Shown: positions 5,978-63,885 of the stretch, in pieces
Numbering within the stretch: position 1 is the stretch's first letter
Layout: every line of letters begins with the position of its first letter
NCBI RefSeq assembly: GCF_016026235.1
Contig: NZ_CP065613.1
DNA from: Escherichia coli
GTDB taxonomy: Bacteria; Pseudomonadota; Gammaproteobacteria; Enterobacterales; Enterobacteriaceae
Direction: 5' to 3' (one strand)
Length of the DNA stretch: 64,000 nucleotides
Notes under the pieces: generated by a model
What the model was told of the DNA's origin: nothing
Database searches by the model: none
The model's input: the letters and a program-made list of their open reading frames with translations, nothing else
Translations under genes and position numbers: made by a program

Positions 5978-7326
5978 CAGGATTTCTCTCCGGCTGCGTT
6001 ATAAAGCAAGGAATGGCGCTGAAAAAAAGCCTTTAAGATCGGAATTAGCGAAAGCACCACATCCAGACATTGACCGCCGAAATAAGCAAACGCTGCTCCC
6101 AGCACGCCAAACAGATGACAGAACATGAACAGCAATACGATGTAGCCGATTGAGGCGATGGTTTGCGCCACGAGAAAAGCGCGCTGTTTTCCCGCCATCA
6201 ATAGCAATGACTCCTGAGGGAAGCCCAGCATCGAGATCACAATTGCGCCCAGCATCACCTGAATCAGGTCATACGCTTCGAGATACTTAACGCCAAACAC
6301 CAGCGAAATGAGCGGCTTGCCGACGATCAACACCGCGAGCGCCACCAGAATACCGATTCCGCCCGCCAGTAAACCGGACTTCACACCTAACAACCACGGT
6401 CTGGTGGTGCGCGGATCTAAACGCATCACCTCTGGGTAAAAACTTTTACCCAGCAAACCCGCTGGCGTTCCGGCGGCGTCGAAGAATGTCATGGCGATTT
6501 TAAATAACCCGGCGACAGCGGGTCCTAACACGATCCCCACCAACACTGTGCTGCACGAGTTACGCGCCGACCAGATGGAGTGGGCAATGTTGGTTGACCA
6601 GACAAAACTCCACGCGCCTTTAATGTGTCGGGCAGACTCAAACAGATTCAATTTGAAGGCGTTATGGATATTTCTGCGGCGTAATTCGCGCGCGGCAAAC
6701 CACCAGTACATGGTGCCGCCAACCAGATTCGACACGTACCAGGCAATAACAAAACCCGCAAAACCAAAGTCAAAATACCAGGCTGCGACGCTCCCCGCTG
6801 CGCGCAGAAAAGGTTTCGTCGCCTGCTGTACAGCAATCAAATCAAAGCGATCTACCGCACGCAGAATGCCGGTCGGCGTGGAGGAAGCCATTGAAGGAAT
6901 GAGCGTGCAATACAGCGCTGCCAGCCAAAAGCTTTGGTCATCCAGACCTAATGAATGGGAAAGAAAAGGGAGTAAGGCAATGCCGCCGACAATCGCCACC
7001 GCGCCGCTGACGATATCCAGCGAGAAGGAAAATGAGACGACATTGCGAAATTGCTGCGGATTATTGTTGGTTAATGCTGGTGTTCCGTACTGAACCACCA
7101 GCTGCCATGTCTGAAACTTAATAAAATCGCTGATCGACTTGGCGTACGATTGCACAATCACCAGTACGCCAAACATGGCGGGCGTCATCCCTTTACCGGC
7201 ACACGAGAGCGCCAACAGACCCAGCAAGGCGCTCACGACATTACTGGAGCCTAACCAGGCGCTATTGCGAATAATGGTGCGAAACGCGCCATCTGCAAAC
7301 CAATGTTTGATGTTAAAACCCGCCAA
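5977..7326 (-). CDS. yghQ: polytopic inner-membrane protein, flippase-like (polysaccharide-biosynthesis/MOP type)
   Basis: 449-aa highly hydrophobic ORF; position immediately before yghR as in K-12. Confidence 0.6.
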   Translation of the reverse strand: MAGFNIKHWFADGAFRTIIRNSAWLGSSNVVSALLGLLALSCAGKGMTPAMFGVLVIVQSYAKSISDFIKFQTWQLVVQYGTPALTNNNPQQFRNVVSFSFSLDIVSGAVAIVGGIALLPFLSHSLGLDDQSFWLAALYCTLIPSMASSTPTGILRAVDRFDLIAVQQATKPFLRAAGSVAAWYFDFGFAGFVIAWYVSNLVGGTMYWWFAARELRRRNIHNAFKLNLFESARHIKGAWSFVWSTNIAHSIWSARNSCSTVLVGIVLGPAVAGLFKIAMTFFDAAGTPAGLLGKSFYPEVMRLDPRTTRPWLLGVKSGLLAGGIGILVALAVLIVGKPLISLVFGVKYLEAYDLIQVMLGAIVISMLGFPQESLLLMAGKQRAFLVAQTIASIGYIVLLFMFCHLFGVLGAAFAYFGGQCLDVVLSLIPILKAFFQRHSLLYNAAGEKS

Positions 7327-9789: not shown

Positions 9790-11301
9790 TTAAATCAACT
9801 GCAATGCTATCCAGTACAGCCCACCAGAAAGAAAAATCGCCGCCGGTAAAGTAAATACCCACGCCATCAGGATGCTGGTTACCGTTTTACGCTGTAACCC
9901 ACCGCCGTCCACCACCATCGTCCCTGCAACTGCAGACGAGAGGACGTGTGTTGTGGAGACGGGCATCCCAATATAACTGGCAAGACCGATAGACACTGCC
10001 GCCGTCATTTGTGCCGCCATGCCTTGCGCATACGTCATGCCGCGCTTACCAATCTTCTCACCGATGGTCATCGCTACACGACGCCAGCCAATCATGGTGC
10101 CAATGCCGAGCGCCAGTGCTACCGCCATGATGATCCACACCGGAGCGTACTCAATGGTGCTTAACATATCGCTGCGAAGTTTTTTCAGCAGGTTCTGGTC
10201 TTCTTTACTGACGCCTGGCGGTTTCGCCAGCTTCGCGGAGGTATCAGAGATGCACAGCATAATGCACAGCATAATGCGGCGCAGCTGGCTGCGCTGACTC
10301 ACGCTTAACGGCTCGTAACTTTCCATATTGCCTGGCAGCATCGTTTTAACGCGCGCAATCGCATCAAAGGTATTTGCCGGATGACAGTGAAACTCCGTCA
10401 CTTGCGCGCCATCAGTAGATGCCGCAGGCAATGGAGGTTCCATCGTAATCAACTTCTGCGGCAGTTCAGGATGCTGTTGCAGGTAGTGTTCGAAGTTGGT
10501 GACGGCATCGCGGGTACGGGTAATTTCATAGCCGGACGCGTTCATATTGACGACGAAGCCAGCAGGGGCAATCCCCACCAATACCAGCATCACCAGGCCG
10601 ATCCCTTTCTGCCCGTCGTTAGCGCCGTGCGAAAACGCCACGCCCGCAGCGGAAACAATCAGCGCAATACGCGTCCAGAATGGCGGCTTACGTTTGCCTT
10701 TTTTCTTTTTGCGATCTTCCGGAATGCGGTGAATACGGTCACGCTTTTTCGTTCCGCTCCAGTAGCGTCGCAGCAGGAATATCAGGCCTCCCGCAATGAC
10801 CAGGCCGACGATAGGGGAAACAATCAGCGAGGAGAAAATTTTGGTCACTTCACGCAGGTTTAACGCATCCATCACCGATGAGCCGGTTAACAGCGCGTTG
10901 GTTAAACCGATGCCGATAATCGCACCAATCAAGGTGTGCGAACTGGAGGCCGGTAAACCAAAGAACCACGTTCCCAGGTTCCAGATAATCGCCGCCAGCA
11001 GCATGGAAAAGACCATCGCCAGACCGTGAGTTGACCCCATATTCAGCAGCAAATCGGTTGGTAACATATGGACAATGGCATAGGCAACGCTAAGTCCGCC
11101 CAATAACACGCCAAAAAAGTTAAAAAATGCCGCCATCACCACAGCAAGTTGTGGTTGCATGGCACGAGTATAAATAACGGTTGCCACCGCATTCGCCGTA
11201 TCATGAAAACCATTGATTGCTTCGTAGAACAACACAAATGCCAGAGCAAGTAATAACAAAAGCCCTGTGTATATATCAAGGCCAACAAATAAATTTAGCA
11301 T
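9790..11301 (-). CDS. pitB: low-affinity inorganic phosphate transporter
   Basis: 503-aa ORF with PiT-family sequence; adjacent to gss as in K-12; contains a 12-bp in-frame tandem duplication. Confidence 0.85.
10251..10274. repeat. 12-bp perfect tandem duplication (tgcacagcataa x2) inside pitB
   Basis: direct reading of sequence; encodes IMLCIMLC on the minus strand. Confidence 0.9.
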
Positions 11302-15248: not shown

Positions 15249-15729
15249 TTTCGCCACTCCTGCGACCAAACAGCAGGGCGCGACGCCCTGCGTGTGGTAC
15301 ATCCGGATTGGTGACCGGCAGCGAAAGGATCATTCGTGCGCAGTCATCCGTCAGGCGTTGGCCCTCTTCAATCGACATACTGTGCGAAAGCGGTGACATC
15401 AGCGAACAGGAGAGGTATTGCGAAACACCGTCCAGTTCGCCAACGGTAAAGGTCATGGTGCCATACGGCAGTTGCAGACCGATTTTTTCACTCACTTTGC
15501 GCAGCGGCCATAGTTGCTCCGGGCCGGGGAAGATAACTGCACTCAGCATCCACGGGGTGATCACACACCCCGTCCACTGACCTTCGAACAGCGTAAAATC
15601 AGAAACATACACCGGCATTGAAGGATGCAGAAAAGAGAGATCGTGCATCGAACGCCGGGCAATTTCTTCAAACGCTGCCTGTACTTGCGCCTTCGGGGAG
15701 GTCTGGAAACCTGCTATCTCTTCAGTCAT
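15241..15729 (-). CDS. hybE: hydrogenase-2 operon protein
   Basis: 162 aa from MTEEIAGFQTSP; overlaps hybF start and hybD stop. Confidence 0.85.
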   Translation of the reverse strand: MTEEIAGFQTSPKAQVQAAFEEIARRSMHDLSFLHPSMPVYVSDFTLFEGQWTGCVITPWMLSAVIFPGPEQLWPLRKVSEKIGLQLPYGTMTFTVGELDGVSQYLSCSLMSPLSHSMSIEEGQRLTDDCARMILSLPVTNPDVPHAGRRALLFGRRSGENA

Positions 15730-16216
15730 GAATCGCCTCCCGTGGGATGGCTTCCACGCCAGATTCACGCAGCGCAGCCAGAACCTGCTCAAGCGCAGGT
15801 TCAATCATTGCTTCAACCGTCGGCGTTAAGCCGATGTGTGGCTCCAGCGATTCCGGAATTACGCCGACCAGGGTCAGCTTTTTCGGAAACTCGCCGGTGA
15901 AGCGCAGGGCCGACAAGACGTCGGCCAGGCCAAGCTGATGCGGAGAGATTTTGTTGGTAAACAACGCCGGAACTTCTTCATCCCGCAGGATCATCATCGT
16001 TCCCGGCGCGCTCTTCTTCGACACAATGGCATCCGCAATAATCAGATGATCGCGATTTGCCATGTCGCCAAGCAGCTCCATTCCCGCCGTGCCGCCATCG
16101 AGGATCTCAACATAATCCGGCAGAATGTATCGTTGCTCTAACGCTTCGACAATCCGCACACCGATGGCTTCATCGGTCAGCAAAATATTGCCGACCCCTA
16201 AGACTAAAATACGCAT
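15722..16216 (-). CDS. hybD: hydrogenase-2 maturation endopeptidase
   Basis: 164 aa, MRILVLGVGN start. Confidence 0.9.
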   Translation of the reverse strand: MRILVLGVGNILLTDEAIGVRIVEALEQRYILPDYVEILDGGTAGMELLGDMANRDHLIIADAIVSKKSAPGTMMILRDEEVPALFTNKISPHQLGLADVLSALRFTGEFPKKLTLVGVIPESLEPHIGLTPTVEAMIEPALEQVLAALRESGVEAIPREAIHD

Positions 16217-17919
16217 TACAGAACCTTCACTGAAACCACTTCGTTGCCGTCAGCATCCACTACGTGTACCGCACAGGCCATGCACGGGTCGAAGGAGTGA
16301 ATGGTACGCACCACTTCCAGCGGTTTATTCGGATCGGCAACCGGTGTACCCACCAGCGACTGCTCGTAAGGACCGACGTCATCATTGAAGTTACGCGGGC
16401 CAGAGTTCCAGGTTGATGGAACAACTGCCTGGTAGTTGCTGATGATACCGTCTTTGATCACCATCCAGTGAGAGAGCATACCGCGCGGCGCTTCGAGGAA
16501 GCCAACACCTTTGAACTCACCCGTTGCCGGAATGTTCGGCTTCACAAAGGTGGTGTGATCGCCTTTGCCGATATTGGTGATCAGTGCACTGTATTGGTTT
16601 TGCAGGATATCCTGCAATTCACAGCAGTGAACGGTACGACCAATAATACGGCCCAGCGTGGAGTGCAGCTGTGCCACTTCCAGCGTGTTGCCAGTCAGTT
16701 TCTGATAAATCGCAACGATTTCATTCAGTTTGTTCTGGGTAGATTCGCGACCTGCCGCCAGTTTCACCAGCATATTAGCCAGCGGACCCACTTCTACCGT
16801 TTTGCCGTAGAAAGTCGGCGATTTCACCCAGGAATATTTACCGTCGTCAGACCAACCGTCGTAAGCCGGAATGGTGGTACCTTCCCACGGTGCCTGCGGC
16901 GCTTCGTCTTTATACCAGGAGTGCTTCGCGCTTTCCTGAATGCCTTTGATCAGGTATTCATCGGAATGAGAAGTGATCGGACGATACGAGGACAGATCCG
17001 CATTCTCAATGTAGCCGCCCGGGAACAGGAAGCTGCCGTTTTTACTGTCGGTCGGGAATTCCGGCACGCTCAGGTAGTTCACCGCACCTTTACCGCGCGT
17101 CAGCCATTCCGGGTAGAACGCGGCAATAACTGCGGTATCAACCTTATAAACCTGTTCAACAAAGTCGCTCAGCTTGTCGATGAAAGACTTGATGTACATC
17201 AGGCGCTCAAGGTTCAGCACGCCCAAACCGTCGAGGTTGATCGGGTTCGCGACACCACCTACCGCCAGGTTCTGAATGTGCGGCGTTTTACCGCCCAGCA
17301 GCGCCACGACGCGGTTAGCGTCACGCTGGCACTCCAGCGCCTGCAGGTAGTGCGCTACCGCAATCAGGTTCACTTCCGGCGGCAGTTTCATCGCCGGGTG
17401 ACCCCAGTAGCCATTGGCGAAAATACCCAACTGACCGCTGGCAACCAGATCTTTGATCTTGTTCTGAACTTTAGTGAACTCTTCCGGACTGTTCAGATGC
17501 CAGGTCGAAACGCCTTTCAGCATTTCGGAGGCTTTGGTTGGGTCAGCTTGCAGTGCAGAAGTGATGTCCACCCAGTCCAGCGCCGAAAGCTGATAGAAAT
17601 GAACGATATGGTCATGCGTGGTGTGCGCAGCCAGAATGATGTTACGGATGTATTGCGCGTTAACCGGAACGTCGATATTCAGCGCACTTTCTGCCGCACG
17701 AACGGAAGACAGCGCGTGAGTGGTAGTACATACGCCACAGATACGTTGCACAATCATCCATGCATCGCGCGGATCGCGGTTTTTCACGATCTCTTCCATG
17801 CCGCGCCACATGGTACCGGAAGCCCATGCTTTCGAAACGACGCCATTTTCGATTTCGCAATCGATGCGTAAATGCCCCTCAATACGGGTTACCGGATCAA
17901 TAGTAATTCTCTGGCTCAT
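16216..17919 (-). CDS. hybC: [NiFe] hydrogenase-2 large subunit
   Basis: 567 aa; N-terminal RIEGH and C-terminal DPCMACAVH nickel-binding motifs. Confidence 0.95.
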   Translation of the reverse strand: MSQRITIDPVTRIEGHLRIDCEIENGVVSKAWASGTMWRGMEEIVKNRDPRDAWMIVQRICGVCTTTHALSSVRAAESALNIDVPVNAQYIRNIILAAHTTHDHIVHFYQLSALDWVDITSALQADPTKASEMLKGVSTWHLNSPEEFTKVQNKIKDLVASGQLGIFANGYWGHPAMKLPPEVNLIAVAHYLQALECQRDANRVVALLGGKTPHIQNLAVGGVANPINLDGLGVLNLERLMYIKSFIDKLSDFVEQVYKVDTAVIAAFYPEWLTRGKGAVNYLSVPEFPTDSKNGSFLFPGGYIENADLSSYRPITSHSDEYLIKGIQESAKHSWYKDEAPQAPWEGTTIPAYDGWSDDGKYSWVKSPTFYGKTVEVGPLANMLVKLAAGRESTQNKLNEIVAIYQKLTGNTLEVAQLHSTLGRIIGRTVHCCELQDILQNQYSALITNIGKGDHTTFVKPNIPATGEFKGVGFLEAPRGMLSHWMVIKDGIISNYQAVVPSTWNSGPRNFNDDVGPYEQSLVGTPVADPNKPLEVVRTIHSFDPCMACAVHVVDADGNEVVSVKVL

Positions 17920-61789: not shown

Positions 61790-61974
61790 ATTTTCAGCTA
61801 TGAACATCCCTGGCCCAAAAAGCCGAGGATTTTTTATATCTGCGTTCCGATAAAAAGTGCAAATGATCGGGCTGTTGCAGCATTTTGCGTGACCGCTCGG
61901 GGAAGGCAAAACTACCTCAGGGAAAGCGTTGCGCGGGGTCCGGCGCTCATCAACAATCGGGGAGTCAGCAAGGG

Positions 61975-62114
61975 GCTGAAACGGGAAAGCCCCTCCCGAA
62001 GAAGGGGCCTTGTATAAGGAAAGGGTTATGATGAAGCTCGTCATCATACTGATTGTGTTGTTACTCGTAAGTTTCGCAGCTTATTAACAGCCAATCAGAG
62101 GGGGGAGAAATCCT
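61975..62114 (-). ncRNA. sibD: SibD antitoxin sRNA body (antisense to ibsD), separated from its promoter by the IS insertion
   Basis: sequence homologous to the intact second copy; boundaries inferred. Confidence 0.4.
62028..62087 (+). CDS. ibsD: type I toxin peptide Ibs (19 aa, MMKLVIILIVLLLVSFAAY)
   Basis: direct translation; hydrophobic 19-mer. Confidence 0.8.
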   Translation: MMKLVIILIVLLLVSFAAY

Positions 62115-63407
62115 CTGAGGGATCCCCAGAAAATTTAGTAAACCATTATCATATTGGTATACCGTTGCTGTAGAACTTTCAGCCCTGCGTCAAATGACAG
62201 TGTGTTTAGTATGAGTGGAGAATGTCGAATCACATTCTCCGCCAGTTTTAATAACGAGATGACTCGCCTGTGCTTCACTGTATTTGCCTGATATTTATGA
62301 TGTATCCCTTTGTTTTCCAGGCTGAAACCGCTTAACCACATAATGATACTGGCTAATGTTGCGATCAGACTCAATACCGTGACCCGCCCGGATGAATGAC
62401 TGGCACCAAACCGTAGTCCAAATCCCCAGCGAGGATTTTTTTCATCCCTGAAATTTTGCTCAATTTGCATTCTACGGCTGTATAATTTCATTACCTGTTT
62501 TGGCGAGAACTCAGTACTGTTTGTGAAAATAAACCATGGTGATTTCCCGGCAGTACGAGCTTTAGCCGTCACCGATGGTCTGGTTGCTCTTTCCTTCGAG
62601 CGTTTAAATCTACGACCTTTAGGCTTACTTTTATAAAGATAAAAATGCCCTTCATGTTGTGCATTTTTATCTCGACCCAGCAGGCCTTCACCTAAATAAA
62701 TTGCTGTCGTTGATGCTTTTGTGCCTGAGTCCGACACCTTTTCCCAGCCATTACCAACATTGTAATAATGATTGCCCAGTACCCGGCAAATATAGGTCCA
62801 GCCACGGGAGCGGAGCTGTTGGAACCATCGCCCCTGAAAACCGGCATCTGTAATAACAATGACATCAGTCCCGGGGGAAAAGCACTCAGCAAGCGATTCC
62901 AGAAAACGCTCATGTACATCTGCATTCGCTGTCTGTGATGATGGAACGACACAACTCATCAACGGTAAAGAACGCCCGTCACATGCCAGGCTTGCCCGCA
63001 AAAGCTGAAAACGAGAGGCATGATAAGCACTCCAGTCAATGAGTATCACAACACGAGACATTCCCGCGTAATCTTTTGGGTAATTCGCTGAAAAATGGTG
63101 GAAACCTCATTTTGCAAATGTCGATTCCCCAACAGTCGATCCACCCGCTTTATTTTGTTTTTAACTGATGCCGTACCGGTTAAATGACGCCCGATACTGG
63201 TAAGTGTGAGGGAAGCGCCATTTATTACAGCATTAGTTGCGTCAATCAGTGATTTTTGACGGTAAAGATGCAAAGGGGCCAGTATATTGTTAAGGAAATT
63301 TTGGCATAATGAACGTGCAGGCATAGTGGTGATCTCCTTGAAATTGTTAGCACAATCAATTAGATCACATCTCACTATGCCTGTCTTGTTTTCTGGGGAT
63401 TCCTCAG
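62115..63407 (-). mobile_element. IS4-family, IS10-like insertion sequence (1293 bp)
   Basis: 19-bp imperfect terminal inverted repeats ctgagggatccccagaaaa / ctgaggaatccccagaaaa; flanked by direct repeats gagaaatcct (9-10 bp target-site duplication) that are single-copy in the second ibs/sib repeat. Confidence 0.8.
62135..63324 (-). CDS. IS10-like DDE transposase, encoded in two overlapping frames (possible frameshift near 63046-63061)
   Basis: N-terminal part (MPARSLCQ...NRHLQNE) and C-terminal part (VILIDWS...LYSRRMQIEQNFRDEK) both align by eye to IS10 transposase; reading frame changes between ITRE and SRVVIL. Confidence 0.7.
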
Positions 63408-63436
63408 GAGAAATCCTCCCTTACCCTTGTTCCTTT

Positions 63437-63465
63437 ACTTTAGGTTGAAAAAAAATCAGCGTCAA
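63437..63465 (-). promoter_or_regulatory. predicted sibD promoter (TTGACG-17 bp-TAAAGT), now directed into the IS right end
   Basis: hexamers read on the minus strand; equivalent TTGACG-17-TAGAGT at 63813-63841 in the second copy. Confidence 0.45.
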
Positions 63466-63654: not shown

Positions 63655-63805
63655 CTGAAACGGGAAAGCCCCTCCCGAGGAAGGGGCCTTATAGAAGGAA
63701 AGGGTTATGATGAAGCTCGTCATCATACTGGTTGTGTTGTTACTGTTAAGTTTCCCGACTTACTAACAACTGATCAGAGGGGGGAGAAATCCTCCCTTAC
63801 CCTTG
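63655..63805 (-). ncRNA. sibE: SibE antitoxin sRNA (antisense to ibsE)
   Basis: predicted promoter at 63813-63841 and a hairpin plus U-rich tract near 63655-63690 on the minus strand; boundaries approximate. Confidence 0.45.
63707..63766 (+). CDS. ibsE: type I toxin peptide Ibs (19 aa, MMKLVIILVVLLLLSFPTY)
   Basis: direct translation. Confidence 0.8.
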   Translation: MMKLVIILVVLLLLSFPTY

Positions 63806-63885
63806 TTCCTTTACTCTAGGTTGAAAAAACAACAGCGTCAATAGGCCTGCCATGTACGAAGCGAGATCTGTGAACCGCTTTCCGG

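Follow-up and report, generated by a model that had tools for sequence, protein, structure and literature searches.

Insertion sequence (IS) elements beside type I toxin genes, such as those of the hok family, are already known, as are the element ISEc60 and the Ibs/Sib toxin–antitoxin (TA) system of Escherichia coli. Pedersen and Gerdes reportedly described, in 1999, insertions of IS150 and IS186 just 3' of hokA, hokC and hokE in E. coli K-12. In the Ibs/Sib system, which is also of type I, a hydrophobic toxin of 18–19 amino acids (aa) is encoded opposite a sib gene, whose RNA is the antitoxin (Han et al. 2010, PMC2943612). Dissection of one of these RNAs, SibC, has indicated that its first 29 nucleotides (nt) are dispensable and that target recognition domain 1 (TRD1, nt 46–68) alone is enough for repression, TRD2 being a weaker module that requires the P1 stem (PMC2943612). 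A minimal sibD promoter of 35 bp is sufficient and strong, and is able to drive foreign RNAs (PMC12956327). Here we describe a sibD locus that is interrupted by a copy of ISEc60, within a stretch of 64,000 nt of an E. coli genome (contig NZ_CP065613.1, assembly GCF_016026235.1), referred to in full as the window. In the literature searched we found no paper linking IS elements with ibsD/sibD, and two papers that mention ISEc60 do so in passing.

The locus follows the gene order of K-12 (yqiK, ibsD/sibD, ibsE/sibE, hldE) and matches the described Ibs/Sib system in its position, toxin open reading frame (ORF), promoter and TRD layout (Han et al. 2010, PMC2943612). The explanation that we favour, with a probability of about 0.85, is that ISEc60 transposed into a preferred, G/C-clamped hairpin target within sibD, severing the promoter of this gene from its body and leaving ibsD intact. 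The features of the locus, in window coordinates, are the following:

61984–62114, minus strand: body of SibD, a promoterless 131 nt (nt 14–144) with TRD1, TRD2 and the terminator, antisense to ibsD (mapped from K-12)
62028–62087, plus strand: ibsD toxin ORF, MMKLVIILIVLLLVSFAAY, intact, its DNA identical to K-12 ibsD (b4664)
62105–62114: left copy of the target-site duplication, the 10-bp GAGAAATCCT (SibD nt 14–23)
62115–63407, minus strand (that of the transposase gene): ISEc60 copy (IS4 family), 1293 bp, with 99.8% full-length identity to annotated copies
62115–62133: terminal inverted repeat CTGAGGGATCCCCAGAAAA, at the transposase 3' end, matching the other end at 18/19
63389–63407: terminal inverted repeat, the complement of CTGAGGAATCCCCAGAAAA, at the transposase 5' end (18/19 match)
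63408–63417: right copy of the target-site duplication, GAGAAATCCT
63408–63430, minus strand: 5' fragment of SibD, nt 1–23 (nt 1–13 plus the duplicated nt 14–23), still on the promoter
63431–63465, minus strand: sibD promoter, an intact 35 bp with −35 TTGACG (63465–63460), 17-bp spacer and −10 TAAAGT (63442–63437), identical to K-12
63663–63806, minus strand: sibE, intact (Rfam hit), with an unoccupied target GAGAAATCCT at 63784–63793
63707–63766, plus strand: ibsE toxin ORF, intact

The annotated 5' end of K-12 SibD maps to window position 63430 (minus strand), which lies to the right of ISEc60; the base at this position is an A, in line with the +1A described for Sib RNAs (PMC12956327). ISEc60 enters the SibD transcript after nt 13 of approximately 144. 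An initial annotation of this DNA had placed the element between the sibD promoter (63437–63465) and the sibD body, and had noted that a Sib start to the left of the insertion would put the element outside the RNA. The element does separate promoter from body, but it lies inside the RNA, 23 nt of which are left on the promoter. The same annotation had described an element 27 bp downstream of an intact ibsD, with a transposase gene co-oriented with SibD, and both descriptions agree with what we find: 27 bp separate the end of the ibsD stop codon from ISEc60, and the sibD promoter now reads into the element in the sense direction of the transposase gene. Opposite the sib gene, ibsD has the short hydrophobic ORF predicted for an Ibs toxin, and the Pfam family Ibs_toxin is recorded on its orthologues. 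On the Rfam model SIB_RNA (RF00113; threshold 56 bits) sibE scored 140.9 bits and the sibD body 81.7 bits, and the promoter-side piece of sibD alone remained below threshold, with 29.5 bits. The contiguous array of promoter, +1 and full RNA antisense to ibs is preserved in sibE and is broken in sibD by 1293 bp and the 10-bp duplication. Positions 1–30 of the Rfam model align to the −35/−10 promoter elements (window 63692–63841, 63806), and Rfam Sib hits for this reason run approximately 35 nt upstream of the real Sib start.

The closest complete genome, that of E. coli FDAARGOS_943 (99.8% identity over 20 kb), which has ISEc60 at 38 places, carries both sibD and sibE uninterrupted. The flanks of the window element rejoin exactly at this empty site, where GAGAAATCCT occurs once, and one difference was seen in the compared region, a G-to-A change near 61827. 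Because FDAARGOS_943 has a single uninterrupted copy, the GAGAAATCCT repeat is a real target-site duplication, which bears out the insertion proposed in the initial annotation and answers its caveat that the repeats might not be a true duplication; because it is the closest genome that has the empty site, the insertion appears to be recent. Four copies of GAGAAATCCT are present in the window, where chance alone would give 0.05: the two that flank ISEc60, a third in sibE (63784–63793), which had already been pointed out as the single, uninterrupted repeat of the second ibs/sib copy, and a fourth that is an unrelated match at 5979–5988. We found the sibD::ISEc60 junction in 0 of 5,426 complete E. 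coli genomes. Assembly errors are common at IS elements, and one could suppose that ISEc60 was misplaced by the assembly or that the flanking repeat is a chance match. We regard this as extremely improbable, since both junctions are exact, the duplicated 10-mer is far in excess of chance, the flanks fit together perfectly at the unoccupied site of the nearest relative, and finished genomes show the same type of junction at sibE and sibB.

The name ISEc60 is taken from the annotation of near-identical copies by the NCBI Prokaryotic Genome Annotation Pipeline (PGAP): at least 12 copies annotated as 'IS4-like element ISEc60 family transposase' match the window element at 99.8% over 1293 bp. Compared with copies of 1294 bp, the window copy has three differences, namely single-nucleotide polymorphisms (SNPs) at 62194 and 63286, one of which changes Leu to Phe, and a 1-bp deletion. 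The boundary of the element was ambiguous, because the G...C that flanks every sib site, and the majority of the others, consists of the same bases as the IS tips. Insertions in the intergenic region between iprA and ampH, where the flanks are T and A, unlike the IS tips, set the ends at CTGAGG...CCTCAG and the duplication at 10 bp, and on these grounds a 12-bp duplication with an element of 1291/1292 bp was rejected. The 19-bp inverted repeats, described as imperfect in the initial annotation and matching at 18/19, and the 10-bp duplication are those of other ISEc60 copies, and window positions 62115–63407 are ISEc60, with all the family features that we tested except an intact transposase gene. 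In a correction to the initial annotation, this gene is split in two, and a hairpin spans its start:

63049–63324, minus strand: N-terminal part of the transposase, 92 aa counted from the ATG, cut short by a frameshift
62135–63061, minus strand: C-terminal transposase ORF, 308 aa, in the shifted frame, with the DDE domain
63318–63383, minus strand: hairpin formed by an inverted repeat with 11-bp perfect arms (63318–63328 and 63373–63383) and 7 further pairs

The 1-bp deletion, one C missing from a CCCC run at 63063–63065, splits a transposase of 396 aa, and because of it no full-length transposase would be produced from the window copy, which does not have the intact transposase ORF of an autonomous element. 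An intact 396-aa homologue scored 360.5 bits on the NCBIfam model NF033591 (transpos_IS4_2; cutoff 152), and the Pfam domain DDE_Tnp_1 is recorded on identical proteins. The window copy is predicted to be non-autonomous and would need the transposase of other copies in order to move, provided that the deletion is not an error of homopolymer sequencing. No identical 308-aa product was present among the protein records; an identical 92-aa product was found in one other genome, GCA_900449095.1, at a different site (iprA–ampH), and the ISEc60 copy at that site shares the 1-bp deletion of the window copy. Either a defective copy was mobilised by the transposase of other copies, or the C run slips recurrently.

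The element had been called IS10-like, which is correct at the level of the family and does not hold for the element itself. The DDE transposase of ISEc60 aligns with that of IS10/Tn10 over 93% of its length (E = 4e-64), and the terminal 13 nt of ISEc60 and IS10A match at 12/13 (CTGAGGRATCCCC versus CTGAAGRATCCCC). IS10 has a length of about 1329 bp and generates a 9-bp duplication at NGCTNAGCN. In contrast, ISEc60 measures 1294 bp, duplicates 10 bp at GGGNNNNCCC (GGG-N4-CCC) sites and has 36% amino-acid identity to the 'IS10A family transposase', and on account of this identity and of its duplications IS10 proper was rejected; the ISEc60 transposase is 51.6% identical to that of ISSfl1. A promoter scan detected no outward promoter like pOUT, a feature of IS10, in the window ISEc60. 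IS10 is also said to be guarded against transcription from outside by a hairpin that hides the transposase start, an observation attributed to Davis, Simons and Kleckner (1985), and the predicted read-in hairpin of ISEc60 resembles this protection. For RNA reading in from the sibD promoter (PsibD) the predicted fold has a minimum free energy of −47.2 kcal/mol (z = −5.1), with the Shine-Dalgarno sequence and the AUG of the transposase buried. By analogy with IS10, we infer that the hairpin at 63318–63383 would hide the transposase start in transcripts coming from outside.

New in this work are a sharp, IS186-like target motif for ISEc60 and the finding that the conserved 5' hairpin of the SIB family is among its best matches, making a family of antitoxin RNAs a recurrent hot spot. 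The ISEc60 target is about G|GGG-N4-CCC|C, where the 10 bp between the bars are duplicated. Every site collected combines a run of G, a centre rich in A+T and a run of C, in many cases as part of a longer G+C hairpin, and nine non-sib sites in E. coli genomes give the consensus gcgGGGATATCCCcgc. A symmetrised matrix made from these nine sites (matrix 1) gave the intact sibE site the highest rank among 63,979 positions of the window, exactly in register with the sibD duplication, and also placed sibD and sibE first in K-12 and in FDAARGOS_943. A second matrix, independent of the first, was derived from 27 distinct half-site flanks obtained by scanning metagenome contigs for ISEc60 ends. It has G at duplication position 1 in 27/27 flanks, at positions 2 and 3 in 23/27 each and at position −1 in 21/27, and C at position 8 in 27/27, at position 9 in 22/27 and at position 10 in 24/27. 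Under matrix 2 the sibE site ranked 2nd in the window; the highest-scoring predicted target is GGGCAATCCC at 10566–10575, which is unoccupied. In the predicted read-in RNA, the retained 5' fragment of SibD (63408–63440, minus strand) pairs with the adjacent IS tip (AGGAUUUC / GAGGAAUCC), because the ends of ISEc60 themselves resemble the target motif (GGGATCCCC, GGGGATTCC).

Every SIB repeat supplies the target motif in the DNA from which the 5' stem-loop of its antitoxin RNA is transcribed. Because this hairpin is among the best matches to the motif, separate strains have undergone independent cuts in sibB, in sibD and in sibE. The insertion site, which the initial annotation had treated as incidental, is thus a predicted and recurrently used hot spot of ISEc60, and we found four independent insertions of this element in sib genes:

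sibD, in the window strain: ISEc60 co-oriented with Sib
sibE, in the enteroinvasive E. coli (EIEC) strains CFSAN029787, RMDEC364 and VL46: ISEc60 co-oriented with Sib
sibB, in CFSAN029787 and RMDEC332: duplication GGGGAAACCC, ISEc60 co-oriented with Sib
sibB, in FDAARGOS_943: the same 10 bp GGGGAAACCC, ISEc60 in the opposite orientation, this copy having later been hit by IS66

The ibs ORF is annotated as intact at every sib::ISEc60 site. A fixed co-orientation of the transposase gene with Sib was considered and rejected, as a junction query for the opposite orientation returned the sibB::ISEc60 insertion of FDAARGOS_943.

The closest parallel for this target preference is IS186, which inserts at 5'-GGGG(N6/N7)CCCC-3', in either orientation at one site and with strong hot spots (Lee et al. 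2016, PMC5009759). The two elements are alike in having a palindromic target of a G run and a C run around a variable core, and in using it in either orientation (for ISEc60, within the same 10 bp at sibB and at iprA–ampH). Unlike IS186, ISEc60 includes the inner G and C bases in its duplication (GGGNNNNCCC), and a shorter distance separates its clamps; lacking a CCCC run, the sibD/E site does not qualify as a canonical target of IS186. We considered homology between the two transposases as the cause of the shared target and did not find it, the match to InsL covering 22 residues (BLASTP E = 0.008). In GCA_031665325.1 a copy of ISEc60 occupies the hairpin GGCGGGGatcactCCCCGCC, at a distance of 22 bp from the 3' side of hokC, and has the duplication GGGATCACTC, and in K-12 (15250–17100) IS186A occupies the same hokC hairpin with the duplication GGATCACTCC, 1 bp off that of ISEc60. 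One hot spot next to a type I toxin gene is used by both of these unrelated members of the IS4 family, and ISEc60 was found adjoining two hok genes. The IS-bearing hok loci and the sibD locus of the window are alike in that the type I toxin ORF is intact and is followed, after a few tens of bp, by an IS that sits in a structured, G+C-rich TA element (checked for hokC/IS186A). They differ in the part that is affected: at hok the toxin mRNA loses its 3' fold-back element to the IS and sok is unaffected, whereas at sibD it is the antitoxin gene that is cut.

The insertion of ISEc60 duplicated nt 14–23 of SibD and split its gene, in such a way that the intact promoter, with its 23 nt, reads into the element and the promoterless 131-nt body has stayed antisense to ibsD. 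From this arrangement we infer that the canonical 144-nt SibD would no longer be made; any remaining SibD activity would come from long transcripts starting at PsibD or within ISEc60 and ending at the SibD terminator. Such a change may be tolerated if chromosomal ibs expression is low and the loss of a sib promoter survivable. Several points weigh against this explanation. The sib site is an imperfect match to the motif, having minority bases at two positions of the duplication (A at position 2 and T at position 10), and 0/27 of the metagenome flanks of ISEc60 are sib sites. Moreover, as the deletion in the transposase gene falls within a homopolymer, it may reflect a sequencing error.

The promoter scan revealed no outward promoter-like site at the transposase 5' end of ISEc60, and a scan for terminators revealed no convincing one on the SibD strand within it, only two weak sites at chance level. 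Two other candidate signals were noted:

62215–62242, plus strand: terminator-like hairpin in ISEc60, an 11-bp stem followed by a T run, which would stop read-in from ibsD (consensus match only)
62145–62174, minus strand: weak promoter-like site TCTACA-18-GATAAT near the ISEc60 end, facing the SibD body (9/12, chance level, not evidence of function)

The initial annotation had offered three functional options: SibD still made by read-through from the co-oriented transposase gene, a silent ibsD, or cross-protection by the other copy. To a loss of SibD function we would give close to an even chance, although slightly less than that. The insertion would then act as a knockout of the sibD promoter, tolerated or mildly derepressing, with ibsD transcription too weak to be harmful or its 3'-extended mRNA less active. 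In Salmonella, a chromosomal sibA promoter mutant is viable and has raised ibsA mRNA (bioRxiv 10.1101/2025.05.26.656083), which supports the idea that losing Sib expression is tolerated. The sibD locus of the window would be a natural counterpart of this mutant, with the difference that its promoter has been displaced by 1.3 kb, not mutated, and may still feed the SibD body by read-through, as well as driving IS RNA. Also consistent with a loss of SibD are the sib-disrupting insertions found in both orientations, which persist in several lineages with intact ibs ORFs, and the lack, in the promoter scan, of a site facing outward from the transposase 5' end. In addition, the 3' hairpin of ibsD is weakened, and its mRNA would extend approximately 130–155 nt into ISEc60, to the hairpin at 62215–62242. 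However, Han et al. report that expression of an ibs mRNA is lethal to cells lacking the cognate Sib RNA, SibA excepted (PMC2943612), and we see no compensating change in the window: the ibsD ORF is unaltered and the upstream region, as far as ~61827, is the same as in the empty-site relative.

A rescue by read-through is possible, although we think it rather doubtful. According to this alternative, transcripts from PsibD and from a promoter of the IS cross ISEc60, supply the SibD body and repress ibsD, the antitoxin being rewired to a new source of transcription, for which co-orientation would matter. The sibD promoter, which has been shown to drive foreign RNAs, is intact, the transposase stop codon lies 20 nt from the ISEc60 end, and the terminator-like sites on the SibD strand are the two weak ones at chance level. 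In chimeric RNAs the SibD body is predicted to keep its native fold, with a TRD1 loop accessibility of 0.57 in both contexts, and SibC truncated at its 5' end was fully active (PMC2943612); the P1 stem, on which TRD2 depends, has been lost. Three of the four independent sib insertions are co-oriented with Sib, but this proportion is not significant, and the sibB insertion of FDAARGOS_943, which is opposite in orientation, broken by IS66 and accompanied by an intact ibsB ORF, implies that read-through is not needed for viability. The predicted hiding of the transposase start, together with the frameshift, would leave more than 1.2 kb of the transcript untranslated and open to Rho termination, and hardly any full-length sfGFP mRNA was detected when PsibD drove its transcription (PMC12956327). 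Repression of ibsD in trans by the neighbouring intact SibE is very unlikely in our view, and the least likely of the three options. SibD and SibE are identical over nt 1–34 and have one difference (nt 113) in TRD2 (nt 99–115), but there are five differences in TRD1 (nt 46–68), the domain that is sufficient for repression, and TRD2 is the weaker module and needs the P1 stem. Furthermore, published repression is cognate-only, ibsA excepted (PMC2943612).

Whichever of these options holds, under the favoured explanation of a transposition into the Sib hairpin the sib::ISEc60 strains are natural mutants in which the Sib promoter is displaced and the toxin intact, and for which near-isogenic relatives with an empty site exist. 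Such strains could reveal whether the cognate Sib RNA really restrains an Ibs toxin encoded on the chromosome, a question that carries more weight now that IbsA has been connected with the inhibition of ATP synthase and with virulence in Salmonella. A more far-reaching idea, which we consider unlikely, is that ISEc60 is a recurrent natural switch of Ibs toxins in IS-rich invasive E. coli, homing to the Sib 5' hairpin and uncoupling the sib promoters, and that derepression of Ibs, or its rewiring to IS transcription, has been selected. If true, this would parallel the sibA promoter mutant of Salmonella, which has more IbsA and spreads better between macrophages.

Some further observations concern the surroundings of the locus and the behaviour of ISEc60 elsewhere. 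The G-to-A difference at 61827 sits in a hairpin just past yqiK (aaagccgAggatttttt), probably the stem of the yqiK terminator. In some E. coli genomes yqiK and hldE enclose a single ibs gene, so the copy number of the tandem ibsD/ibsE unit varies, presumably via recombination between the repeats. In at least three strains (FDAARGOS_943, 2023CK-01509 and GCA_900449095.1) ISEc60 occupies, in both orientations, the intergenic site between iprA and ampH (TGGTTATCCC), a second recurrent hot spot of the element; in FDAARGOS_943 the copy at this site is adjoined by an IS5-family element. Lastly, two copies of ISEc60 arranged head to tail, with a spacer of exactly GGTAAATCCC, are present on the EIEC virulence-type plasmid pCFSAN029787_01 (65468–67061). 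A pair with the same spacer is found in the chromosome GCA_031665585.1 (~1,015,000), adjoining a hok-family gene, where the whole pair is flanked by the duplication GGAAAATCCC, and this dimer seems to have transposed as a single unit.

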